Shown piece by piece: positions 6,545-43,872 of a DNA stretch of 64,000 nt. The stretch is taken from the NCBI GenBank assembly GCA_902769535.1, contig CACXPH010000009.1:11032-75031 (forward strand), given 5' to 3'. Both the position numbers and the translations under genes were made by a program. The stretch's first letter is position 1. Each line of letters begins with the position of its first letter. The notes beneath the pieces were generated by a model. That model saw only the letters and a list, made by a program, of their open reading frames with translations, was not told where the DNA came from and did no database searches. This DNA comes from an uncultured Bacteroidales bacterium. GTDB taxonomy: Bacteria > Bacteroidota > Bacteroidia > Bacteroidales > Paludibacteraceae.

Positions 6545-6618
6545 TGGAGTATAGCGGACTCGAACCGCTCACCTCAACACTGCCAGTGTTGCGCTCTAGC
6601 CAGATGAGCTAATACCCC
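6545..6618 (-). tRNA. tRNA-Ala (anticodon GGC)
   Basis: Reverse complement GGGGTATTAGCTCATCTGGCTAGAGCGCAACACTGGCAGTGTTGAGGTGAGCGGTTCGAGTCCGCTATACTCCA folds as a cloverleaf. Anticodon loop CTGGCAG; G3:U70 Ala identity pair. Confidence 0.9.
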
Positions 6619-7800: not shown

Positions 7801-7832
7801 CAAAGGTAATGCTATTTTTTGAAATATACAAA
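7801..7832 (-). promoter_or_regulatory. Bacteroidota-type promoter for the SprT-like gene
   Basis: Reverse strand TTTG-N20-TACCTTTG. Confidence 0.55.
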
Positions 7833-7848
7833 TAAAAATGCAAAATGG

Positions 7849-7880
7849 TTTGCATATGTGCAAAATGTTTTGTATCTTTG
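7849..7880 (+). promoter_or_regulatory. Bacteroidota-type promoter for the BRO-N gene (divergent from SprT promoter)
   Basis: TTTG (7849-7852)-N20-TATCTTTG (7873-7880), then GCAGCG; ATG lies 19 nt downstream. Confidence 0.6.
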
Positions 7881-10560: not shown

Positions 10561-10592
10561 TTTGCATATATGCAAAATATTTTGTAACTTTG
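10561..10592 (+). promoter_or_regulatory. consensus Bacteroidota promoter with no ORF immediately downstream
   Basis: TTTG-N20-TAACTTTG followed by CAGCG. It points toward the terminator and body of the opposite-strand tRNA-Asn. Confidence 0.5.
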
Positions 10593-10687: not shown

Positions 10688-10761
10688 CGCTCCCTCTAGG
10701 ACTTGAACCTAGGACCCCCTGATTAACAGTCAGATGCTCTAACCGACTGAGCTAAGGAAGC
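10688..10761 (-). tRNA. tRNA-Asn (anticodon GTT)
   Basis: Reverse complement GCTTCCTTAGCTCAGTCGGTTAGAGCATCTGACTGTTAATCAGGGGGTCCTAGGTTCAAGTCCTAGAGGGAGCG folds as a cloverleaf; anticodon loop CTGTTAA. Confidence 0.9.
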
Positions 10762-10794: not shown

Positions 10795-10826
10795 CAAAAG
10801 TACTGCTTTTTGTTGATATATGCAAA
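10795..10826 (-). promoter_or_regulatory. Bacteroidota-type promoter for tRNA-Asn
   Basis: Reverse strand TTTG-N20-TACTTTTG, about 35 nt upstream of the tRNA 5' end. Confidence 0.6.
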
Positions 10827-15406: not shown

Positions 15407-15870
15407 AAAAAGCGGTTATAGGCTATGGGTTATGGGTGATAGGCCTATTGATGCTCTGCACGTCCTGCAGCACCGACACGGTCTATAGTCAATTTGTCGC
15501 GATTTCATCGGGAGAATGGCATGTGGACTCGGCGAAAGTGTTTGACTATACCATTGCTGATGCGCAACCCGGCTATCAGCTGTTGGTCTATGTGCGGCAT
15601 ACGGAGCGCTATCCGTATCAGAACATGTGGCTGTTTATTGACAACGGTGCACAGCGTGACACGATCGAGTTTTACTTAGCGGATGACCGCGGTCAATGGC
15701 TCGGCAACAAGCATCATGGTTTCATCGAGATGCCGGTGTTGCTTGAAGAGAACTATCATTATTCCGATACAGGCGCATACACGCTTTCTATCCAGCACGG
15801 CATGCGTGACAGTCTGCTGCGTGGCATTATGGATGTCGGTTTGGAGATTTCGAAAAATGGACAAGATTAA
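15403..15870 (+). CDS. gldH: gliding-motility-associated lipoprotein GldH
   Basis: 155 aa; lipoprotein signal ending [22 protein letters not shown] block; conserved position after holB-PSP1 in Bacteroidota. Confidence 0.6.
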
Positions 15871-15878
15871 ATCGTCCT

Positions 15879-16619
15879 ATGGGTAAGAATAAACTCAAGA
15901 AATTTGCGGAGATGGAGACCTTCTCCAATGTCTTTCAGCCGCCGTATAAACCGATGGCGGGACGTTGGCGTGAGCAGTTTTTTCATAACGACAACCCGAT
16001 AGTGCTGGAACTTGGTTGCGGTCGAGGCGAGTACACCGTAGGCTTGGCGAAGAAATATCCCGACAAGAACTTCATCGGCGTGGACATCAAAGGTGCACGC
16101 ATGTGGGCAGGAGCCAAAGAGGCGGAGTTGAACGGAATCAAGAATGCTGCTTTCCTGCGTACGCAGATAGAGTTCATCACGGAGTTCTTTGCAGCCAATG
16201 AAGTGGATGAGATATGGATTACGTTCTGTGACCCGCAGATGAAGAAAGCTACCAAGCGTCTGACTTCCACCTATTTCATGCAGCGCTACCAGCAGATCGT
16301 CAAACCGAACGGTCTCATTCATCTCAAGACCGACAGTCCGTTCCTCTATACTTATACCACGGAGATGCTGCGGCTGAACCCCTATCCTGTCGTTTGCTCG
16401 ACCGATGACTTATATGCCAAAACACTCGATTCCAACGCACTTTTTGCGGATGCGCGAGCACTGCAGACGCATTATGAGAAACAATGGCTCGATAGAGGAC
16501 TGAGTATCAAATATGTCGAATGGCATCTGTCGCCTCTGACGACTTGGGAAGAACCCACTATCGAGATAGAGAAAGACACGTACCGTTCGTACGGTCGTAA
16601 TTACAACAATCCCGAATAA
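15879..16619 (+). CDS. trmB: tRNA (guanine-N7)-methyltransferase
   Basis: 246 aa; [14 protein letters not shown]-binding motif, [15 protein letters not shown]. Confidence 0.85.
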
Positions 16620-34182: not shown

Positions 34183-35091
34183 ATGAAAAAACTCTTCCTT
34201 CTCTCAGCGCTGCTAATCGGCAGCATACACCTTGCGGGTTGTCAACCGCAGGAACCCGAACAAGTAGAACCCAGTAAGGTTGTGATGCATTATAATTTCA
34301 AGTCGCAGTTCGTTCCGAGTCGCACGATCCGTGTGTGGTTGCCGGAAGGCTATAGTGCGACCAAGAAATACGATGTGCTCTATATGCACGACGGTACTAT
34401 GCTCTTCGATGCTACCACTACCTGGAACCATCAGGAGTGGGGTGTGGACGAAGCGATGGACTCGCTCGTTAACCTCGGTCGTATCCGTCCGACGATCGTC
34501 GTGGGTATTGATAACCGGACCAACACCATGGACCGCGTAGCGGAGTACTGTCCGGACGATGTAGGCGAACTGCTTCCGGCCGGTAAACAACTCTACGACG
34601 GTTTAGGCACGCCGCATGGCAATGACTACTTGCGTTTTCTTATCGAGGAACTCAAGCCCTTCATCGACTCGGCGTATTCCACCTATCCCGATCGTGACCA
34701 TACATGGATCATGGGTAGCAGTTGCGGTGGACTCATCTCGTCTTATGCGCTTTGTAAGTACCCGCAGGTCTTTGCCGGCGCAGCCTGTATGTCCACGCAT
34801 AGCACCCTGGCAGCGGATGTGAATCATCCTGATCCGGACGCGATTACGGCCTATCGCACCTATCTGCTGCAGCATCTGACACCCAATAGTTGTTTGCTCT
34901 ATTTCGATCGCGGCGACCAGACCCTTGATGCCAATTATGCCGAGTCGCAGGATGCCATCAATCAGGCACTTTGGGCTGCCGGATGGGACGAAGACCATTT
35001 CATGTACCGTTTCTTCCCGGGTGCGGCCCACGAAGAGAAATACTGGCGTGCCCGTCTAGATATTCCCCTCCGTTTCTTGCTGGGAAAGTAG
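34183..35091 (+). CDS. secreted esterase-family alpha/beta hydrolase lipoprotein
   Basis: Start moved to the MKKLFLLSALLIGSIHLAGC lipobox; GSSCGG nucleophile elbow; C-terminal GAAHEE. Confidence 0.6.
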   Translation: MKKLFLLSALLIGSIHLAGCQPQEPEQVEPSKVVMHYNFKSQFVPSRTIRVWLPEGYSATKKYDVLYMHDGTMLFDATTTWNHQEWGVDEAMDSLVNLGRIRPTIVVGIDNRTNTMDRVAEYCPDDVGELLPAGKQLYDGLGTPHGNDYLRFLIEELKPFIDSAYSTYPDRDHTWIMGSSCGGLISSYALCKYPQVFAGAACMSTHSTLAADVNHPDPDAITAYRTYLLQHLTPNSCLLYFDRGDQTLDANYAESQDAINQALWAAGWDEDHFMYRFFPGAAHEEKYWRARLDIPLRFLLGK

Positions 35092-35128
35092 AATAGTGAA
35101 TACTGATTTGGTCGTTTTTGCATTTTTA

Positions 35129-35160
35129 TTTGCATATCTAAAAAATTCTTTGTACCTTTG
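35129..35160 (+). promoter_or_regulatory. Bacteroidota-type promoter of the seven-gene operon
   Basis: TTTG-N20-TACCTTTG then CAGCG, 106 nt upstream of the ATG at 35267. Confidence 0.6.
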
Positions 35161-35266
35161 CAGCGTGAAAATATAGAGAAAAACCATGTTTTTGGGATTT
35201 AATATTGATGCGTGGATTACGATCGTCAACGTCGTGTATCCTTTAACTCCGCTACCCTAATCCATT

Positions 35267-37351
35267 ATGAATAAACCCTCTCAAAAGAAAACACAGAAAG
35301 ACCACGGTGGTCTATGGATCATCCTCGTTGCGGCAGTAGCATTGGAGGCTATCTCCTGCCTTATGTACTTCACCAGCCGCGCTGCCATCCGTCAACAAGC
35401 GGAGCAACGTGCCAAGACCGAGTTACGTCGTGCGGAACTGGAGATAGATGTTCATGCTATCGAAATGGAAACAGCCGCTAAGGGTTTGGCGCTGCTGGTT
35501 CAAAAGCATATTAACGAACCGGATTATATCTTCGCCGCCACTCGGCTGGCAGTAAGTACATTGCGCGCCAACACCAGCATGGCGGTCGCGTTCATTCCTA
35601 ACTATTTCCCTAAAAAAGGGGAGTTCTTCGAGATCTGCAGCAGCCGTTTCTCGGAGGATAGTATCTACACGCGTCAGATAGGTAGTGCCACCCATGACTA
35701 CACCCAAATGGAATGGTATCAAAATGGCTTGGTGTATGACAGTTGCCGGTGGTGCGAGCCGTACTTGGACGATTCGGGTTCGAAGACCTATGTGGTCAGT
35801 TATTCATGCCCTGTACACGACGCAAACGGCAAAGTGGTGGCTGTCGTATGTATCGATATGTCGCTGGACGAACTCAAGAACATCTCCGAATATCTGCAGG
35901 TCTATCCAAACAGCTATTATACCATCCGTTCCGGTACTGGCGTGGAGATCGTACCTGCGCCGGATACCGTGCCCGGGCGCAGATATAATATCTATGGAGA
36001 AGATATAGATGCCACCGGTTGGCACATCGAGATCATCATTCCCGAAGAGGAACTCTTCCGCGACCTCAATCATATCGGACGCATCGTTGGATTGCTGATG
36101 CTTTTAGGCCTGGCAATGCTCATCCTTATTGTATGGTACGCCGGTCGTAACACCAAACGTATGGTCGAATCGACAGCGCGTAACCAGAGTATCGAGAACG
36201 AACTCAATATCGCGCGTAAGATCCAGATGGCAATGCTGCCGACGCGTTTCCCGCCATTCCCGGACTATCCGTACCTGAATGCATACGGTGAAGTGATTCC
36301 GGCTAAAGAAGTAGGTGGTGACCTGTTTGATTTCTTTATCCGCGAGAACAAACTGTTCTTCTGCGTCGGTGACGTGAGTGGAAAAGGTGTACCGGCATCC
36401 ATCGTGATGGCGATGACGCGTTCTATCTTCCGCAGTTTCTCGTCCTACCTGAACAGCCCGGCGCAGATTGTCACGCAGATGAACGACAGCCTCAGCGGAG
36501 AAGGTAATGACCAGAGTATGTTCGTCACCTTGTTCCTCGGTGCACTCGACCTCTCCACCGGTGAACTCAAATACTGCAACGCCGGTCACAATGCCCCCAT
36601 ACACCATACACCATACACCATACACCAATTAGATTGTACACCGAATCTTCCTCTCGGTGTGCTGGGTGGCTTTGCATATCAGGAACAAGAAGCGAAACTG
36701 GAGATCGGTGACTCCCTGTTCCTCTATACTGACGGCTTGACCGAAGCAGAGAACAGCGCACATGAACAGTTCGGGGAGCAGAGGATGGATGAGCGGTTAG
36801 CGGCGAGCGGCGAGCAGAGTCCGCAAGAACTCATCCAGACGATGCAGCAAGCCGTGGCTGCGTTTGTAGGTGATGCCGAGCAGAGCGACGACCTGACCAT
36901 GTTCGCCATCCGGTTGTTAGACAAATCTCAAATCTCAAATGTCAAATCTCAAATGAGCTCAGGCCATTACTCCCTCGTCATGCGTAATGATATCCAGCAG
37001 ATACCGACGCTCGCCGAGTGGGTGGAGATGATCGGTCTTCCGCAAGAACTCAATATGCCGATCAACCTGGCGCTCGAAGAGGCGGTAAGTAACGTCATGC
37101 TATACGCCTATCCGGGTAAGAGCGGACAAGTGCTCATAGAGTGCGACAAGTTCGACAAGCTGGTATTCACCATTACCGACAGCGGTGTACCGTTCGACCC
37201 GACGCAACAGGAAGATCCGGACGTGACGCAGAGTGCAGAAGACCGCCCGATTGGCGGTTTGGGTATTTTCCTCGTTCGCCAGATCATGGATGACATCCGC
37301 TATGAACGCAAAGACAATAAGAATATTCTGACATTAACAAAAAAATTATAA
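35267..37351 (+). CDS. membrane sensor with PP2C/SpoIIE phosphatase fused to an RsbW-type HATPase serine kinase
   Basis: 694 aa; two TM segments bracket a ~240-aa extracytoplasmic region. PP2C blocks are GGDLFDFF, CVGDVSGKG, NAGHN, LYTDGLTEA, DDLTMFAI. The C-terminus LALEEAVSNV...GGLGIFLVRQIMD is an anti-sigma-kinase-like ATPase. Confidence 0.8.
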   Translation: MNKPSQKKTQKDHGGLWIILVAAVALEAISCLMYFTSRAAIRQQAEQRAKTELRRAELEIDVHAIEMETAAKGLALLVQKHINEPDYIFAATRLAVSTLRANTSMAVAFIPNYFPKKGEFFEICSSRFSEDSIYTRQIGSATHDYTQMEWYQNGLVYDSCRWCEPYLDDSGSKTYVVSYSCPVHDANGKVVAVVCIDMSLDELKNISEYLQVYPNSYYTIRSGTGVEIVPAPDTVPGRRYNIYGEDIDATGWHIEIIIPEEELFRDLNHIGRIVGLLMLLGLAMLILIVWYAGRNTKRMVESTARNQSIENELNIARKIQMAMLPTRFPPFPDYPYLNAYGEVIPAKEVGGDLFDFFIRENKLFFCVGDVSGKGVPASIVMAMTRSIFRSFSSYLNSPAQIVTQMNDSLSGEGNDQSMFVTLFLGALDLSTGELKYCNAGHNAPIHHTPYTIHQLDCTPNLPLGVLGGFAYQEQEAKLEIGDSLFLYTDGLTEAENSAHEQFGEQRMDERLAASGEQSPQELIQTMQQAVAAFVGDAEQSDDLTMFAIRLLDKSQISNVKSQMSSGHYSLVMRNDIQQIPTLAEWVEMIGLPQELNMPINLALEEAVSNVMLYAYPGKSGQVLIECDKFDKLVFTITDSGVPFDPTQQEDPDVTQSAEDRPIGGLGIFLVRQIMDDIRYERKDNKNILTLTKKL
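36597..36627. repeat. (CCATACA) x4.4 heptamer tract inside the PP2C domain
   Basis: Four perfect head-to-tail copies plus CCA; encodes HHTPYTIHQ. Confidence 0.9.
36922..36956. repeat. (CAAATCT-like) x5 heptamer tract in the PP2C-kinase linker
   Basis: CAAATCT CAAATCT CAAATGT CAAATCT CAAATGA; encodes SQISNVKSQMS; same word family as 39602-39636. Confidence 0.9.
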
Positions 37352-37355
37352 TCAT

Positions 37356-37658
37356 ATGACAATCAACATCGTTAACGAGGGCGAGCAACTGGTTGCACAA
37401 CTCTCCGGAAGATTAGACACCGCTGCGGCTGCAGAGATTGCACCGGATTTCCAGGCACTCGCAGAACAAGCTGCTAAACACATCATTCTGGACTGCTCTG
37501 AACTGGAGTACATCTCTTCGTCGGGTCTGCGTTTGTTCCTTGCCTTGCGCAAAGAGTCCGCTGCCAAAGGCGGCAAACTGCAGGTTCGGGCTATCAATGC
37601 CGACATCCGTCAAGTATTCATGATGACCGGCTTCATCAGCCTCTTCGAAATCCTCTAA
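37356..37658 (+). CDS. STAS domain protein (anti-sigma-factor antagonist type)
   Basis: 100 aa; LSGRLDT, LDCSELEYISSSGLR (phosphorylatable Ser context), FEIL C-terminus. Confidence 0.85.
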   Translation: MTINIVNEGEQLVAQLSGRLDTAAAAEIAPDFQALAEQAAKHIILDCSELEYISSSGLRLFLALRKESAAKGGKLQVRAINADIRQVFMMTGFISLFEIL

Positions 37659-37679
37659 ACTTTAAACGCTAAACGTTTT

Positions 37680-38729
37680 ATGGACCTACATTCGGAAATG
37701 CTGCTGGAGGAGTACCGCGAAGCGAAGCCTGTGTTCGAACAGATGCAAGGCGAAGTCACGCGTATCCTGAAGGAAGCCTTAGAGCGCAACGGACTCATTG
37801 TGACAGCCGTCGAGACGCGTATCAAGACCGAAGAGAGTCTGGCGGGCAAACTGGCACTCAAGGGCTCTAAGTACGCCACGCTCAGCGACATCACCGACAT
37901 CCTTGGTGCGCGTATCATCACCTTCTATACCGACGACGTGGACCGTATTGCCGCCATGGCGGAACAGCTCTTCGAGATCGATTGGACCAACTCCGTCGAT
38001 AAGCGTAAACTGCACCAACTGGACAGTTTCGGGTATAACTCGCTACACTATATCTGCCGTCTGCCGGGTTATGACTACCGCTTCGAACTGCAACTACGTA
38101 CCACACTCCAACACGCTTGGGCGGCAATTAATCATGATAACGGCTATAAGTCCGGCGTGGAGATTCCGCGCGAGTACATGCGACGAATCAACCGACTGGC
38201 AGGCCTACTGGAGATAGCCGATGACGAGTTCAGTCACATCCGGACAGAGATTAACGACTATCGTCGTCGCGTACAACAACTGGTACAAAACGGACAACTG
38301 GACGATGTACTGTTGGACGGTGACGCTTTCCGTAGTTACCTGAATGCACGACCGTTTGATAAACTCAACAAACGCATTGCGGCTATCAATCAAGCGGAGA
38401 TCCAAGAAGTGCCGTTAATCCGGTACCTAAAAGTGCTCAAAGAGTTGGGATGCAACACCTTAGGCGATGTGGCGCGTCTGCGTAATACCTACGAGGAAGA
38501 CGCCTATGCGCTTGCACGCCATCAGTTGGGAAATACCGACCTTGATATCATCTCGTCCGCTGTCGGACTGCAGAACATCTGCATCGTGTGCATCCTTTCG
38601 CAAGGCGGTGGTAAGATCGGCCTGCTGCGCTTCTTCAATGCCCTCAACGGACATGATTCGCAGAACGAAGAACTGGCGGACCTCACCTTCAAACAGGCCT
38701 CTAACTTGCCGTTTATGAATAAATCGTAA
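37680..38729 (+). CDS. RelA/SpoT-domain small alarmone synthetase with an unassigned C-terminal half
   Basis: 349 aa; RIKTEESLAGKL, ILGARIITFY, FGYNSLHYI, ELQLRTTLQHAWAAINHDNGYK synthetase motifs in residues ~40-170. The last ~170 aa are unrecognised. Confidence 0.8.
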   Translation: MDLHSEMLLEEYREAKPVFEQMQGEVTRILKEALERNGLIVTAVETRIKTEESLAGKLALKGSKYATLSDITDILGARIITFYTDDVDRIAAMAEQLFEIDWTNSVDKRKLHQLDSFGYNSLHYICRLPGYDYRFELQLRTTLQHAWAAINHDNGYKSGVEIPREYMRRINRLAGLLEIADDEFSHIRTEINDYRRRVQQLVQNGQLDDVLLDGDAFRSYLNARPFDKLNKRIAAINQAEIQEVPLIRYLKVLKELGCNTLGDVARLRNTYEEDAYALARHQLGNTDLDIISSAVGLQNICIVCILSQGGGKIGLLRFFNALNGHDSQNEELADLTFKQASNLPFMNKS

Positions 38730-38763
38730 TAACGAAATTACGTAATTATGTAATCCTGAAAAA
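38724..38763 (+). repeat. junction element copy 1 (octamer-built, contains ATTACGTAAT palindrome)
   Basis: TCGTAATAACGAAATTACGTAATTATGTAATCCTGAAAAA; 36/40 identical to 40199-40238. Confidence 0.9.
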
Positions 38764-38764
38764 T

Positions 38765-39604
38765 ATGAACCCTATTTTAATAGATCTCAACGACTACGTA
38801 CGTACCGGCGAAGGAGCTAACGGTGCGAGTTATAACCATAAGACCGATCCGTCGATCATGATGAAGATGTACTTCCGCAATTTCGAGGCAGCCGCGCTCG
38901 AACTCGAACTGGCGAAGAAGGTCTATGCTGCAGGCATCCCTACTCCGGAACCAGGCGACCTCGTGACAGACGGCGAGCGCATTGGTATTCGTTTCCGACG
39001 CATTGACGGCAAGAAATCCTATTCGCGTGCCTGCGGTGACGAACCCGAGAAAGCACCTGAGTTCGGACGTGAGTTCGCGCAGCTCTGCAAGAAACTGCAC
39101 TCCATTCACGTGGACACCACGCAGTTCGAATCCGTCAAAGACCGCCTCTATCGCATGCTGGAGAACAATCCGGATTTCACGCCGGCACAGAAGACCAAAC
39201 TGCATGATTTCATTGCAGCTGCTCCGGATGCGGACACGGCCATCCATGGGGATTTGCAGTTCGGTAACGGCATTTTCACGGATAAAGATGGTGTGCATAC
39301 GCAATACTTCATCGACCTCGGTGATTTCTGTTACGGTTATCCTATGTTCGACCTCGGCATGGTCTATCTATGCTGTTGCCTCAATGACGAAACATGGACC
39401 ATGGAAGTGAACCATATGTCCAATGCTACCGCACGCAAATTCTGGGATGGTTTTGCTCGTGAGTACTTTGGTCCGAATGCTGACCTCGAAGAGGTAGAAA
39501 AGGTTGTTCGTATCTACGCCGGTCTCAAGACCATCATGATCGAGCGTGACACGCACTGTCCGATGCCCCAATTCCGTGCCATGCTTGAAGGCGTCATTTA
39601 TTAA
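38765..39604 (+). CDS. APH-fold (aminoglycoside-phosphotransferase-like) kinase family protein
   Basis: 279 aa; HGDLQFGNGIF catalytic loop and IDLGDF metal-binding motif. Confidence 0.7.
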   Translation: MNPILIDLNDYVRTGEGANGASYNHKTDPSIMMKMYFRNFEAAALELELAKKVYAAGIPTPEPGDLVTDGERIGIRFRRIDGKKSYSRACGDEPEKAPEFGREFAQLCKKLHSIHVDTTQFESVKDRLYRMLENNPDFTPAQKTKLHDFIAAAPDADTAIHGDLQFGNGIFTDKDGVHTQYFIDLGDFCYGYPMFDLGMVYLCCCLNDETWTMEVNHMSNATARKFWDGFAREYFGPNADLEEVEKVVRIYAGLKTIMIERDTHCPMPQFRAMLEGVIY

Positions 39605-39625
39605 ATCTCAAATTTAAAATCTCAA

Positions 39626-40204
39626 ATGTCAAATAAGTATCTTGATACTTCCCTGCTTGACCGCGCAATCATCTTCGCCGTTCAAGCGCATCACAACACC
39701 GAACGGCGCGGTAAAGGTTTTCCTTATATCGTTCATCCGATGGAAGCCGTCGAGATCGTAGCTACTATCACACCCGATCAGGAACTGTTGGCAGCGGCTG
39801 CGCTGCATGACACCATCGAAGATACGGACGTGACGGTAGAAGACATCCGTACGCAGTTCGGAGACCGTGTGGCGGAACTGGTGCATGCCGAGTCCGATCA
39901 GTTCACCGAAGGAGTCTCCGAAGAGGACAGTTGGCACGAACGTAAGCAAGCCGCTATCGACCGTCTGGCAGCCGCTTCGCACGACGCCAAGATCGTAGCG
40001 ATGGGAGATAAACTGAGTAACATGCGCGCCATCTGGCGGGACTATCAGACCAAAGGTGACGAACTGTGGACTATCTTCCATGTGAAGAACAAAGCTTCGC
40101 ACGAATGGCATTATCGCGGTCTCGCAGCTTCTTTGTCCGAGTTGAGTGACACCTTTGCCTACCAAGAGTTCGTACGACTGATTAATGAGGTATTTAATTC
40201 GTAA
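39626..40204 (+). CDS. HD-domain small alarmone hydrolase-like protein (SpoT/Mesh1 type)
   Basis: 192 aa; AHHNTERRG, VHPMEAV, ALHDTIEDT, FGDRVAELV blocks of the (p)ppGpp hydrolase domain. Confidence 0.75.
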   Translation: MSNKYLDTSLLDRAIIFAVQAHHNTERRGKGFPYIVHPMEAVEIVATITPDQELLAAAALHDTIEDTDVTVEDIRTQFGDRVAELVHAESDQFTEGVSEEDSWHERKQAAIDRLAAASHDAKIVAMGDKLSNMRAIWRDYQTKGDELWTIFHVKNKASHEWHYRGLAASLSELSDTFAYQEFVRLINEVFNS

Positions 40205-40238
40205 TAACGCAATTACGTCATTACGTAATCCCGAAAAA
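40199..40238 (+). repeat. junction element copy 2
   Basis: TCGTAATAACGCAATTACGTCATTACGTAATCCCGAAAAA. Confidence 0.9.
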
Positions 40239-40240
40239 CA

Positions 40241-41041
40241 ATGAATATTATCTTTGATAATATAATCAACGCTCGCGATCTCGGCGGCATGATCGGTCAT
40301 GAGGGACGCAAAGTACGTAGCGGAATGCTACTGCGTACAGCCCATCTGCATGACGCCACCGATGAAGACATCAGTCGTCTGCAGAACGAGTACCACCTGC
40401 GTCGGATCTTCGATTTTCGGTCATTAGGTGAGGCGCAGTTCCTACCCGATCGCGAAGTACCGGGTGCTACGCATCACCTGTTGCCGACCATCGACCTCAG
40501 TGCCGAGCGTGTGACCGAACAACCCATCCCGCAGGAAGCCTTCCTCGATCTCGAGCGGCATATAGTCAACTATTCGTTCTATCCCGAGGTGCAAGCCATG
40601 GCGGCGGATATGTACCCCTCCCTCATTCGCTCCGAATATTCTCAACTGCAGTATGCCACCTTTCTCCGTCTGATCGTGGAGACACCCGAAGGCGCGGTAC
40701 TCTGGCATTGTTTCCAAGGTAAGGACCGAACCGGTTGGGGAGCAGCGTTTATCCTGTCTGCCTTAGGAGTGGATAGAGAAACGATCATCGCCGATTTTGA
40801 CCGTTCCAACAAGGCTTACCGCGGACTGGTCACACGGCTCAATGACGATGTTATCGCGCGCGGCGGAGGCGAGGCGGAGATGGATGTCATACAAGCCTTC
40901 ATGGGTGTCAGCACGAAAAATTTCCGTCGCACCCTCGACTTCATCGACCGTGAGTTCGGCGGCATGATTGCTTACCTTCAGAACCAACTCCTCCTTTCCA
41001 AAGAGGACATCCAATTATTACGCAAACGCTATTTAGAATAA
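40241..41041 (+). CDS. Cys-X5-Arg phosphatase (tyrosine-phosphatase-like family)
   Basis: 266 aa; NARDLGG N-terminus and HCFQGKDRTGWGAAF active-site loop. Confidence 0.7.
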   Translation: MNIIFDNIINARDLGGMIGHEGRKVRSGMLLRTAHLHDATDEDISRLQNEYHLRRIFDFRSLGEAQFLPDREVPGATHHLLPTIDLSAERVTEQPIPQEAFLDLERHIVNYSFYPEVQAMAADMYPSLIRSEYSQLQYATFLRLIVETPEGAVLWHCFQGKDRTGWGAAFILSALGVDRETIIADFDRSNKAYRGLVTRLNDDVIARGGGEAEMDVIQAFMGVSTKNFRRTLDFIDREFGGMIAYLQNQLLLSKEDIQLLRKRYLE

Positions 41042-41059
41042 CACTAAAAATTTAATATT

Positions 41060-41683
41060 ATGAATCCGAACAACAAATTTGTCATCACGATCAATCGTGA
41101 GTTAGGTAGCGGTGGCCGCACCGTAGGTCGTAAACTGGCTGAAAAACTGGGCGTTGAGTATTATGACAAAGCCCTCATCAAGGCATTGCAAGATCGATAT
41201 GGTATCTCCGTCGAGCAAATCGAGAAAATCAAAGGTCAGGAACAAGGCTGGTGGGCAGAATTCAAACGTAAGATGACCTTCTCGGAAGAAGAGTACAATC
41301 TTAACCAGATGGGAATTGAATCCGAGTCTGTCTTCCGGGCAGAGATCGAGTTCCTGAAGGGCCTTGCCAAAGAGGAATCGTGCGTCATCGCCGGTCGTAG
41401 CGGTTTCTATATTTTCCGCGACCACCCGAACCATCTGAGTATCTTCATTCAGGCATCCATGCCATGCCGTATGGCACGTGTAGCGCGTGAGCAGAATATG
41501 TCGAAAGAAGAAGCACGCATGACCATCGAGAAAATCGACCAGATGCGCGAGAACTATATCAAAGAGCAAACAGGTCTTTCCCGTTACGACACCCGCAACT
41601 ACCAACTCGTGCTCTCGATGGACGAACTGACGGAAGACGCTGCTGTTGATGTCATCATGGAGTATATCCGTAAGATGGCTTAA
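41060..41683 (+). CDS. cytidylate-kinase-like P-loop family protein
   Basis: 207 aa; VITINRELGSGGRTVGRKLAEKLGVEYYDK N-terminus typical of the Cytidylate_kin2-type family. Confidence 0.55.
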   Translation: MNPNNKFVITINRELGSGGRTVGRKLAEKLGVEYYDKALIKALQDRYGISVEQIEKIKGQEQGWWAEFKRKMTFSEEEYNLNQMGIESESVFRAEIEFLKGLAKEESCVIAGRSGFYIFRDHPNHLSIFIQASMPCRMARVAREQNMSKEEARMTIEKIDQMRENYIKEQTGLSRYDTRNYQLVLSMDELTEDAAVDVIMEYIRKMA

Positions 41684-41778
41684 CGACGCTAAGATGCCGC
41701 AATGGGTAACCGACTATTTTTTCTCATCTATGCAATGACATAAAGTCTTTGATTAAATTGTATAGTGTGTGGTGTATG

Positions 41779-41806
41779 AAGGGCAGCTACGGCTGCTCTT
41801 TTTTTG
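41779..41806 (+). terminator. rho-independent terminator of the seven-gene operon
   Basis: GGGCAGC-TACG-GCTGCTC hairpin followed by TTTTTTTG. Confidence 0.75.
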
Positions 41807-41951
41807 TATGTACTGAAATTAATATAAGTTATACTATATGTCATATTTCTGTGTTATTTTTAGTATTCTATTTACGATTATTCGCAAAATGTTGTGTATG
41901 TAATCAAAAAGCAGTAATTTTGCCGGTGATTTAACAAAAAAGAATGGAAAT

Positions 41952-43199
41952 ATGAAGATTCTGTTTGTAGTGAATAGCTATTTTAGTCAAGGCAACGGTC
42001 TTGATGAGTCAGCACGAAGAACCGTGCAAGCCTTGCGCGATGCGGGACAGGAAGTGCGAGTGTTATCCGGAAAGAATTTTGAGAATCCCGATGGTCCGCA
42101 ACCCGATTATCCGATGGAGAAATTCCATTTCCCGTTGATGCAACCTATGTTGGACTCGTTTGGTTACGCCTATGCGGACTGGCACGGAAAAACGGTGGAA
42201 GACGCGGTGCGTTGGGCGGATGTCATCCATCTCGAAGAGACGTTCTTCCTGCATCACGCGGCGATGAACTGGGCACGCAAACTCGGCAAACCCATCACGG
42301 GCACGTATCACGTGCACCCGGAAAATATTGTATATAATTGTTTAGGTTTTACAGGAGGACACCTCATCTGTCAGATCCTCTATCGCTACTGGTGCCGTGT
42401 GTTCTACGACAACTATAAATACCTGCAGTGTCCTACGGACAACGTACGGGATCGTCTGATTCGCCATCGTGTGAAAGCCAAATGTTTCACCCTCTCGAAC
42501 GGCGTTATTCCCGACAAGTGTATTCGTCCTAAGACACCTCCTACAGATTACTTGGATCCCGAGCGTCCTTTAGACCTCATTTATATCGGTCGTACGGCCG
42601 TAGAGAAAGACCAACCGACCCTCTACAAGGCTATTCGGCTCAGCAAATACGCAAAGCGTATACGGCTGCATATCGCAGGTCGTGGACCGAAGTTAGATCA
42701 GTACACCAAGATGGCGAACAAACTCTATGAGGATGGCGTAGTGGATTATCAACCGACAGTGGGTTTCTATGACCGCGAAGGCTTGCGTCAACTGGCAGCC
42801 AAAGCCGATCTGGCGGTGCATTGCGCCTTGGTGGAAGTAGAAGGAATGAGTATTACCGAAGCCCTGCAACAGGCGGTCGTACCCGTTATTGCCGAAGCCC
42901 AATATTCCGGCACGGCCATTTATGCACTCGACGACCGCAGTAGGTATCCCGCAGGTGACGCACAGGCCTTGGCTGCACGGATCGACTACTGGTTTGACCA
43001 TCCGCAAGAGCGCTGGGCAATGGGTTTCAAATATGCCGAGTCGATGAAGCAATACGAGATAGCCAACTGTGCCCAAGTCCTTATTGAGATGTTCCAAAAA
43101 GCCATTGATTCTACGAAATATGCGATTTATCCTCTTCATTATCCTGTGTTTACTTCCATTAGCCGCGAGGTCATCCGATTCTATCGCCGCATCGCCTGA
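41952..43199 (+). CDS. GT4-type glycosyltransferase
   Basis: 415 aa; two Rossmann halves; C-terminal half has the EVEGMSITEALQ (E-x7-E-like) motif. Confidence 0.6.
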   Translation: MKILFVVNSYFSQGNGLDESARRTVQALRDAGQEVRVLSGKNFENPDGPQPDYPMEKFHFPLMQPMLDSFGYAYADWHGKTVEDAVRWADVIHLEETFFLHHAAMNWARKLGKPITGTYHVHPENIVYNCLGFTGGHLICQILYRYWCRVFYDNYKYLQCPTDNVRDRLIRHRVKAKCFTLSNGVIPDKCIRPKTPPTDYLDPERPLDLIYIGRTAVEKDQPTLYKAIRLSKYAKRIRLHIAGRGPKLDQYTKMANKLYEDGVVDYQPTVGFYDREGLRQLAAKADLAVHCALVEVEGMSITEALQQAVVPVIAEAQYSGTAIYALDDRSRYPAGDAQALAARIDYWFDHPQERWAMGFKYAESMKQYEIANCAQVLIEMFQKAIDSTKYAIYPLHYPVFTSISREVIRFYRRIA

Positions 43200-43872
43200 A
43201 CTCATTCATACATCCTGGTTCTGCAGCGCCGAGAAACTAAGTAGGAATGTTGATATCTATATACCGGAGGGGGAAGGTCCTTTTCCGGTCTTGTATCTGA
43301 TACACGGCATCAACGGTTACGAAGGTTCGTGGCAGGAGAAAGGGCACGCCTTGGACACCCTCGCTGCCAAGATAGCACAAGGTCTCTGTCCGCCTATGAT
43401 ACTGGTCATGCCCGATTGCAATAAATGGCCCTACAAAGTGCATCCCGGCCGTAAGAACCTCTGCCGCTATCTCTTCCGCTACGGTCGTGTCAGCCGAGAG
43501 CACGAGATAGAATACTCTATCAGTGAACTGATGGCGATGGTGGATACGACCTACGCAGTGTCCGGATATTGCACGATAGCTGGTCTGAGTGACGGTGCAC
43601 GAATAGCTGCGAATGTAGCTAATCTCCGACCCGATTGTATCCATTCGGTGGGACTCTTCTCGCCTGTCTTGCATAAAGATCAGTTGCCCAAAGACTCCAC
43701 GCAGAATTATTACGTCTATGTAGGCACCAAGGATATGTTCAAAGCCAGCGGAAAGCGCTATCACAAGCGCATGATCAAGGCAGGATACAGGCATCAGTTC
43801 ATCGAACTGAAAGGCCGTCATGATTGGAAAGTGTGGCAGGCCTGCCTATCCGATTTCCTCGAGAAAATGTGA
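43120..43872 (+). CDS. secreted esterase-family alpha/beta hydrolase
   Basis: Start moved to the MRFILFIILCLLPLAA signal peptide; PVLYLIHG, GLSDGA nucleophile elbow; overlaps the GT4 gene end by 80 nt. Confidence 0.55.
   Translation: MRFILFIILCLLPLAARSSDSIAASPELIHTSWFCSAEKLSRNVDIYIPEGEGPFPVLYLIHGINGYEGSWQEKGHALDTLAAKIAQGLCPPMILVMPDCNKWPYKVHPGRKNLCRYLFRYGRVSREHEIEYSISELMAMVDTTYAVSGYCTIAGLSDGARIAANVANLRPDCIHSVGLFSPVLHKDQLPKDSTQNYYVYVGTKDMFKASGKRYHKRMIKAGYRHQFIELKGRHDWKVWQACLSDFLEKM

Follow-up and report, generated by a model that had tools for sequence, protein, structure and literature searches.

In a 64,000-nucleotide stretch of DNA from an uncultured Bacteroidales bacterium of the Paludibacteraceae (contig CACXPH010000009.1, positions 11,032 to 75,031; hereafter the window), seven genes that we call A to G follow one another closely on the forward strand. 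They encode, in this order, a membrane sensor carrying phosphatase and kinase domains, a STAS protein, a small alarmone synthetase (SAS), an APH-fold kinase, a small alarmone hydrolase (SAH), a Cys-X5-Arg phosphatase and a protein of the cytidylate kinase type. We consider it probable that these genes form a non-canonical partner-switching operon in which alarmone metabolism, and not a sigma factor, is the output. The coupling of a STAS/partner-switching module to a synthetase/hydrolase pair had been proposed in an earlier sequence-only reading of this DNA, and it is now strongly backed by conservation of the gene neighbourhood in two Bacteroidales families and in distant lineages, and by gene fusions. 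All seven domain assignments made in that reading agree with Pfam and NCBIfam, and the motifs that it quoted were located where expected in the proteins.

Protein A (694 amino acids; 35267..37351, in window positions, with all features of the operon on the forward strand) combines the two enzymes of a partner switch in one chain. Two transmembrane segments, at approximately residues 15-37 and 270-293, lie either side of a PDC/Cache-like domain that is predicted to be periplasmic (~35387-36163; MCP-like_PDC_1, 65.7 bits in Pfam). They are followed by a PP2C/SpoIIE phosphatase (~36317-36928; SpoIIE, 174.8 bits) and by an RsbW-type serine kinase (~36992-37348; HATPase_c_2, 87.1 bits), whose region also matches the NCBIfam model of RsbW in part. 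The metal-binding motifs of the phosphatase (GGD350, DVSGKG369, TDG488 and SDD540) and the ATP-binding motifs of the kinase (N-box SNV at 608, G1 DSGVPFD at 638 and G2 GGLG at 663) are intact. Protein B (100 amino acids; 37356..37658) consists of a single STAS domain of the anti-sigma antagonist type (60.5 bits in Pfam) and scores 63.7 bits against TIGR00377, over the cutoff of 53.45. A comparison of 97 unique STAS proteins from genes adjacent to an SAS gene shows residues Y52, S54, S55, G57, L58 and R59 to be invariant and I53 to be kept in 82%. Ser55, which we take to be the counterpart of Ser58 in the D-S58-S-G-L context of SpoIIAA, is the predicted phospho-acceptor of B.

A and B therefore supply the PP2C phosphatase, the HATPase_c_2 kinase and the STAS protein with a conserved phosphorylatable serine that mark partner switches of the RsbU/RsbW/RsbV type, and they share with these proteins and with SpoIIE/SpoIIAB/SpoIIAA the D/S-S-G-L context of the phospho-serine. 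They differ from both systems in that kinase and phosphatase are fused in a membrane sensor, in that the STAS gene is constantly accompanied by a gene for an alarmone synthetase, and in that no sigma factor is encoded among the seven genes or in their flanks. This last point, already made from the sequence alone, holds for the relatives as well: in a search that used a single ECF seed and possibly under-detects group-3 sigma factors, no more than 5 of 160 related loci, all of one clade, had a gene for an extracytoplasmic function (ECF)-like sigma factor at a distance of up to 3 kb.

The product of gene C (349 amino acids; open reading frame (ORF) 37680-38729) consists of two parts. The N-terminal half (37680..38288) is a RelQ/RelP-like SYNTH domain with a long helix, in which the Pfam family RelA_SpoT (PF04607) is matched with 62.5 bits over residues 46-159 only. 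A structural model of C built from a 124-sequence alignment has a mean pLDDT of 89.8, and residues 1-203 superpose in Foldseek on RelQ/RelP (5dec, 6fgk) with TM-scores of 0.77-0.83 at 22-27% identity. C aligns with RelQ/RelP in each of the motifs R-x-K...S...K, D-x-x-G-x-R, G-Y-x-S-x-H and E-x-Q-x-R-T...W-A...H...Y-K. Within the family of C the majority of the motif residues do not vary, including R47, K49, K57, D73, R78, Y119, H123, E136 and Q138. The catalytic Asp/Glu and the ATP-binding Arg/Lys residues expected of a SYNTH domain are thus in place.

The C-terminal 146 residues (amino acids 204-349; 38289..38729) form a helical domain that is conserved throughout the SAS family, whose members are proteins of approximately 350-370 amino acids that align end to end and fall into 982 clusters at 50% identity (E <= 1e-30). 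Modelled alone, this domain reaches a pLDDT of 95.8 and a pTM of 0.91. No Pfam family matches it, and in a Foldseek search of the PDB its best match had E = 3.7 with TM-scores below 0.31; the half of C that could not be assigned from the letters of the DNA thus also stays without a family or fold match after searches with hidden Markov models (HMMs) and structures. C appears to be an active enzyme of the RelQ/RelP fold, yet it is not a plain RelQ/RelP, because it scores only ~54 bits (54.3) against the YjbM equivalog, for which the cutoff is 320, and because it carries the conserved extra domain in place of the single-domain architecture of ~200-230 amino acids. The reservation that C might be just such a plain enzyme is hereby removed.

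To what extent these genes belong together was judged from 80 loci that were retrieved by scanning a single genome of each species: 35 of the Paludibacteraceae type, with SAS proteins 67-94% identical to C, and 45 from Prevotella/Xylanibacter, with identities of 48-61%. The loci were annotated by tblastn and by HMMs trained on the proteins of the window and on homologues of them, and the denominators given here are eligible loci. In 72 of 77 species-representative Paludibacteraceae and Prevotella genomes, the SAS gene has a STAS gene on the same strand at a distance of no more than 500 nt; farther than 5 kb from the SAS gene, these loci show a background of 2 STAS genes per 766 kb (0.26 per 100 kb). 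In Paludibacteraceae the neighbourhood includes STAS at 28/28 loci, PP2C at 27/28, APH at 28/30, HD_4 at 27/30 and the phosphatase F at 27/30. The block A-B-C-D-E-F is kept in this family, and the genes outside it are mostly unrelated between species. Only 7 of the 30 Paludibacteraceae loci contain a gene of the G family; its place varies but is usually between E and F, and the products are no more than 35-56% identical to G.

Prevotella has a minimal unit of kinase, STAS and SAS. The STAS gene stands immediately upstream of the SAS gene at 40 of 45 loci, and a kinase domain is encoded upstream on the same strand at 35 of 45, either as a free-standing RsbW-like protein of 137-141 amino acids or as part of an A-like PDC-HAMP-PP2C-kinase sensor. 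None of D, E, F and G lies beside the SAS gene; HD_4, phosphatase and CK2 genes were each found there at 0 of 41 loci. Of the co-occurrence of A and B with C to G, which the sequence-only reading had made a test of its proposal, the association of C with STAS, PP2C, APH, HD_4 and phosphatase genes stands in Paludibacteraceae, and that with D to G fails in Prevotella. The idea of a fixed seven-gene system has to be given up: F is confined to Paludibacteraceae (it is absent beside the SAS gene both from Prevotella and from the distant loci described below), G is facultative, and Prevotella combines its smaller core with other accessory genes. Among cultured bacteria, the module is carried by X. 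ruminicola D31d and Ga6B6 and by Prevotella sp. P6B1 and MA2016.

Further genes recur at the Prevotella loci (L041-L085). A regulator of the GerE/LuxR type of ~200 amino acids follows the STAS-SAS pair at 20 of 45 loci (e.g. L045:11093-11698); its N-terminal ~130 amino acids have no Pfam match, and it could be an alarmone-responsive transcription factor. A fused ABC-2 transporter of ~965 amino acids is encoded upstream at 17 of 45 (e.g. L045:5466-8360). At L050 (9359-9667), and also at L051 and L054, two tandem STAS genes, both encoding YISSSGLR, lie directly upstream of the SAS gene.

A second scan, seeded from family members 34-47% identical to C, gave 80 metagenomic loci whose SAS proteins are 35-62% identical to the reference P0271, which is itself 44% identical to C. 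The core of kinase, STAS and SAS reappears among them, usually accompanied by a PP2C phosphatase and often by an SAH, and three gene orders are seen in these distant loci: PDC-PP2C/kinase/STAS/SAS/SAH, SAS-SAH-STAS-PP2C-kinase, and SAH-x-PP2C-kinase-STAS-SAS. Within 500 nt of the SAS gene, STAS was found at 20 of 57 eligible loci and HD_4 at 19 of 57; within 3 kb, STAS was present at 24 of 44 and PP2C at 21 of 44. Some distant SAS genes have an SAH gene as their sole neighbour of this kind, or none. One locus adjoins a HelD gene of the Bacillus type (above its equivalog cutoff) and another has a GC content of 28%; judging by such neighbouring genes and by GC content, the module appears to extend beyond Bacteroidota to partly Firmicutes-like loci.

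Gene fusions provide a second line of evidence. At L174:6001-7566, a single ORF of 521 amino acids, continuous on the DNA, joins HATPase_c_2 to an SAS with its C-terminal domain; the protein is 49% identical to C, and the locus holds no STAS gene. In P0154 the SAS and its C-terminal domain are followed by HD_4. HD_4 is fused to an APH-fold kinase in genes located directly after the SAS gene at three metagenomic loci (L147:5348-6808, L148:9086-10522 and L155:1024-2412). In two Prevotella species a STAS domain that retains EYISSSGLR is joined to an APH-fold kinase in a protein of 403 amino acids (L077:7997-9208 and L083:1970-3181), and the fusion gene is the first of an operon of the order STAS-APH / RsbW-like kinase / STAS / SAS. 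Taken together, these fusions tie the kinase domain of A, together with B, C, D and E, into what we regard as one functional network; for F and G, no fusion or wider linkage was found. Because the APH kinase is fused to a STAS domain, the D-type kinase may itself be an effector under partner-switch control. In a Firmicutes-like locus, HD_4 is fused to Amidohydro_1 (L099:9074-10900), and this amidohydrolase domain might act on a base or nucleotide. A separate Amidohydro_1 gene lies within the cluster at L092.

These data bear on an alternative in which the switch formed by A and B acts on an unlinked target, a sigma factor or some other protein, and the SAS, SAH and remaining genes are merely co-transcribed stress genes. 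Canonical RsbW proteins bind sigma factors, only 64 kb of this genome are visible, and in one Xylanibacter clade the second gene downstream of the SAS gene encodes an ECF sigma factor; moreover, approximately half of the sampled distant SAS members lack partner-switching neighbours. Nevertheless, we judge co-regulation alone to be unlikely. Sigma factor genes are as rare near these SAS genes as stated above, and a kinase domain and an SAS are encoded in one ORF. The adjacency of STAS and SAS genes persists while their surroundings change and while gene order is reshuffled between lineages. In addition, a kinase domain tethered to a membrane protein, as in A, would seem ill suited to the sequestration of a sigma factor.

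The hydrolase E (192 amino acids; 39626..40204) is an HD_4 protein of the Mesh1/RelH-like kind (73.4 bits in Pfam). The solved proteins nearest to it are Lmo0812 (4yf1, 9e-21), the SAHs 7qoe and 7qoc, and Mesh1 (3nr1), and the motifs HD61, ED65 and DKLSN128 of a stand-alone SAH are present. E thus compares most closely with stand-alone hydrolases such as Mesh1 and RelH, and the arrangement of C and E is that of FaRel/ATfaRel and other pairs in which a synthetase and an HD hydrolase are encoded together. The latter likeness raises the alternative, also mentioned in the sequence-only reading, that C is a toxic SAS (toxSAS) making (pp)pApp or pyrophosphorylating tRNA, with E and possibly B as antitoxin, in a toxin-antitoxin or anti-phage module. 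SAH antitoxins are known for FaRel (PMC7229694), SAS and SAH genes overlap in some distant relatives (e.g. L149), and CapRel likewise is a protein of ~370 amino acids with a regulatory C-terminal domain. C also gives a weak PADLOC match (51.8 bits), restricted to the SYNTH region, to the candidate system PDC-S33.

Most of what we observe points away from a toxin. The profile of the C family favours RelQ/RelP (1e-24 to 1e-20) over CapRel (6e-6), no toxSAS chain other than CapRel is among the 59 PDB matches of this profile, and superposition of C on CapRel gives a root-mean-square deviation of 21 A. The C-terminal domain shows no CapRel-like or other known fold, and C does not fall within the validated subfamilies (FaRel, FaRel2, PhRel, PhRel2, CapRel and Tas1-like). 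The pattern of an obligate adjacent antitoxin with a patchy or mobile distribution is not what is seen. Instead, almost all sampled species of Paludibacteraceae and Prevotella carry the module, its sequence identity tracks taxonomy, the pair lies within a sensor-driven operon, and the Prevotella loci dispense with an adjacent SAH. The window context is one of housekeeping genes (priA, ftsH and rsfS). A search of the other six proteins with PADLOC gave nothing beyond a weak nucleotide-kinase match for G, and a defence-system reading was rejected, since this match and the generic SYNTH match of C are all that PADLOC returned. We therefore consider the toxin-antitoxin explanation very improbable.

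A different question is the nature of the nucleotide that C makes. Because its closest folds are (p)ppGpp synthetases and because the motifs of these enzymes are retained, (p)ppGpp or pGpp is the simplest assumption and most likely the product. The partner-switching core could be as proposed and the product nonetheless not be a guanosine alarmone, in which case C would act with D and F to produce or modify (p)ppApp, a nucleotide bearing further phosphates, or pyrophosphorylated RNA or protein. Several features would suit such a product: the low identity of C to RelQ/RelP given above, the family-specific invariants Q144-H145 (a QHxW motif against MNFW in RelQ), the fusion of the hydrolase to a D-type kinase in some genomes and to an amidohydrolase in others, and the P-loop of F, which is of the lipid/poly-phosphate type known from MptpB. 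All alignable donor- and acceptor-site motifs of RelQ/RelP are kept in C, including the G-Y-x-S-x-H loop, and E resembles ordinary (p)ppGpp hydrolases; together with the nearest folds of C, they make a non-guanosine product seem rather improbable to us. A literature search found no sequence rules for acceptor specificity.

The remaining three enzymes are less easily placed. D (279 amino acids; 38765..39604) is a divergent kinase of the APH/eukaryotic-like-kinase fold (APH, 67.6 bits in Pfam) with the motifs HGDLQFGN at 161 and IDLGDF at 183, and it scores 221.9 bits against TIGR02172, slightly below the cutoff of 228.2. Sequence and profile searches of the PDB gave nothing better for D than E = 6.5e-4, and the matches are a mixture of protein and small-molecule kinases. 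F (266 amino acids; 40241..41041) is a Cys-X5-Arg phosphatase (Y_phosphatase3, 196.6 bits in Pfam) with the MptpB-like P-loop HCFQGKDRTG, and it matches 8dhi (5e-22) and MptpB (1ywf, 4.7e-14) in the PDB. G (207 amino acids; 41060..41683) is a P-loop protein of the Cytidylate_kin2 family (157.3 bits in Pfam) whose best PDB match is 3hdt (1e-24), and the solved members of this family are uncharacterised. The P-loop of G, GSGGRT, carries Arg in place of the invariant Lys of a classical Walker A motif, which renders it doubtful whether G is a kinase. The earlier suggestion that D, F and G edit the phosphates of a nucleotide has found no direct evidence, although D is integrated into the system elsewhere through its fusions to SAH or STAS.

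From the layout, domains, motifs, linkage and fusions that are observed, we infer a set of protein contacts, a direction of regulation, a nucleotide product and roles for D, F and G that together would make up the following scheme. A would act as a membrane sensor in which the periplasmic PDC/Cache-like domain shifts the relative activities of the PP2C phosphatase and the RsbW-type kinase of the same chain, and the resulting balance would fix the phosphorylation state of B at Ser55. B, together with the RsbW-type domain or in competition with it, would control the activity of C through protein-protein contact. In one form of the scheme, either unphosphorylated or phosphorylated B binds C, perhaps at the C-terminal domain, and switches it. 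In another, the RsbW-like domain might hold C as RsbW holds a sigma factor, and B would displace that domain; this form is attractive because the kinase-SAS fusion exists. C would then be a RelQ/RelP-fold pyrophosphokinase with an added C-terminal domain that probably makes (p)ppGpp or pGpp, and E would hydrolyse this product and reset the signal. D could serve as a further integrated effector or regulator, F as a family-specific accessory phosphatase, and G as an optional addition.

A more far-reaching version is possible, and we hold it only tentatively. In this version the sigma factor of an RsbW/RsbV-type switch has been replaced by an alarmone synthetase, such that an extracytoplasmic ligand sensed by A directly gates a dedicated SAS, possibly through its C-terminal domain, and D and F convert the alarmone to or from a non-canonical phosphorylated nucleotide. 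Dominant anaerobes of the rumen and gut (Prevotella, Paludibacteraceae and some Firmicutes) would thereby be able to produce alarmone independently of the ribosome and in response to a specific signal.

Parts of the partner-switching scheme have precedents. In Pseudomonas, HsbR is likewise a fused kinase-phosphatase with a STAS output protein, HsbA. SypE, a fused kinase/phosphatase of Vibrio fischeri, acts on the STAS protein SypA (PMC8256260). A resembles SypE and HsbR in joining an RsbW-like kinase and a PP2C phosphatase in one polypeptide with a STAS protein as output; it differs in that those proteins have a receiver-domain input and biofilm or flagellar targets, whereas A has a periplasmic PDC/Cache-like input and is linked to SAS and SAH genes. 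In the SiaABCD system of Pseudomonas aeruginosa, a small switch protein controlled by phosphorylation is reported to bind and activate a diguanylate cyclase (PMC8457831). The logic is the same, with a phospho-regulated switch protein acting on a second-messenger synthetase, but this is analogy and not membership. SiaABCD uses cyclic di-GMP and a GGDEF domain, A reaches just 47.2 bits with the SiaA model, for which the cutoff is 700, and Pfam finds no GGDEF domain in the cluster. With RelQ and RelP (SAS1/SAS2), C shares the fold and the aligned catalytic and substrate motifs; it departs from them in sequence, in its extra 146-residue domain and in its genetic tie to STAS, kinase and PP2C genes. 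From SAS-SAH and toxSAS pairs the system differs in that C is not close to any validated toxSAS.

Several points weigh against the proposal that alarmone metabolism is the output of this switch. About half of the sampled distant SAS members have neither a STAS nor a PP2C gene as neighbour, and because many of them lack these neighbours, the SAS family as a whole is not bound to partner switching. In Prevotella the SAH gene does not adjoin the SAS gene (0/41), the linkage of F is restricted to one lineage, and that of G is sporadic. Conserved adjacency and fusions speak for functional linkage, and not for a mechanism or for contact of B or the A kinase with C. The acceptor substrate of C is not readable from its sequence, D has no close solved relative, and the single transcript is deduced from signals in the DNA.

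We found no paper that describes a linkage of SAS or ppGpp to STAS proteins, partner switching or an anti-sigma antagonist; subscription journals were covered in part, and a prior description is possible. Such a linkage is not mentioned in the searched parts of two surveys of the RSH family, nor is a linkage to SAS mentioned in a review of STAS proteins. Partner switching and SAS/SAH pairs are systems of known kinds. What we did not find described is the coupling of STAS to alarmone synthesis. The system also includes the C-terminal domain without a solved relative and the orphan, TIGR02172-like kinase family, which is here newly linked to alarmone metabolism through gene fusions.

How SASs are switched on is an open question. 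They are known to be controlled through transcription, by allosteric pppGpp and by RNA binding, and here a family of SASs of ~350 amino acids is repeatedly linked to a switch that operates by serine phosphorylation and has an extracytoplasmic sensor. If the partner-switching scheme is correct, it would open a new input route to stringent-type signalling and add a class of output not known before for partner switches. Prevotella and Xylanibacter are major genera of the rumen and the human gut, and because cultured strains of both carry the module, the hypothesis is directly testable.

The arrangement of the operon on the DNA was examined by ORF, consensus and hairpin scans, which confirm the layout as first described, with one promoter, seven ORFs (A to G) on the same strand separated by gaps of 4, 21, 35, 21, 36 and 18 nt, and a terminator. 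TTTG and TAnnTTTG are the -33 and -7 consensus elements of Bacteroidetes promoters. A promoter of this type lies at 35129..35160 (-33 TTTG, 20 nt, -7 TAccTTTG), and the pattern TTTG-N18-22-TAnnTTTG has 12 matches in the 64-kb window against 0.72 expected. A search for this pattern found no second full match on the forward strand between 35160 and 43910; only two bare TAnnTTTG motifs occur nearby, one at the very beginning of the coding sequence of F (40249) and one ahead of the gene that follows the operon (41915). A scan with the sigma-70 consensus misses the promoter at 35129-35160, which the Bacteroidetes consensus detects. Downstream of G, an intrinsic terminator (41778..41806) is the first such element that is met; it is composed of a 10-bp GC-rich stem (41778-41801) and a T-run, with a dG of -16.1 kcal/mol and z = -3.4. 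This layout would fit a single transcription unit. Rfam searches detected neither a riboswitch nor any other RNA family in the operon and its 106-nt leader (34900-42000, E <= 1), and at gathering thresholds they returned only two tRNAs in the whole window.

Elsewhere in the window, two promoter-consensus matches lie close together in divergent orientation at 7801-7832 (reverse strand) and 7849-7880 (forward strand). A second divergent pair, at 10561-10592 (forward) and 10795-10826 (reverse), flanks one of the tRNA genes (10688-10761, reverse strand); the other tRNA gene is at 6545-6618 on the same strand. Downstream of the operon, an esterase-like gene (43069-43872) that follows a glycosyltransferase gene is called inconsistently on near-identical contigs (L001-L006, ~15558-16194). 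On some of these a forward-strand Esterase of 144-193 amino acids is predicted, and on others a reverse-strand ORF of 194 amino acids without a domain; the discrepancy may reflect strain-level frameshifts or noise in gene calling.

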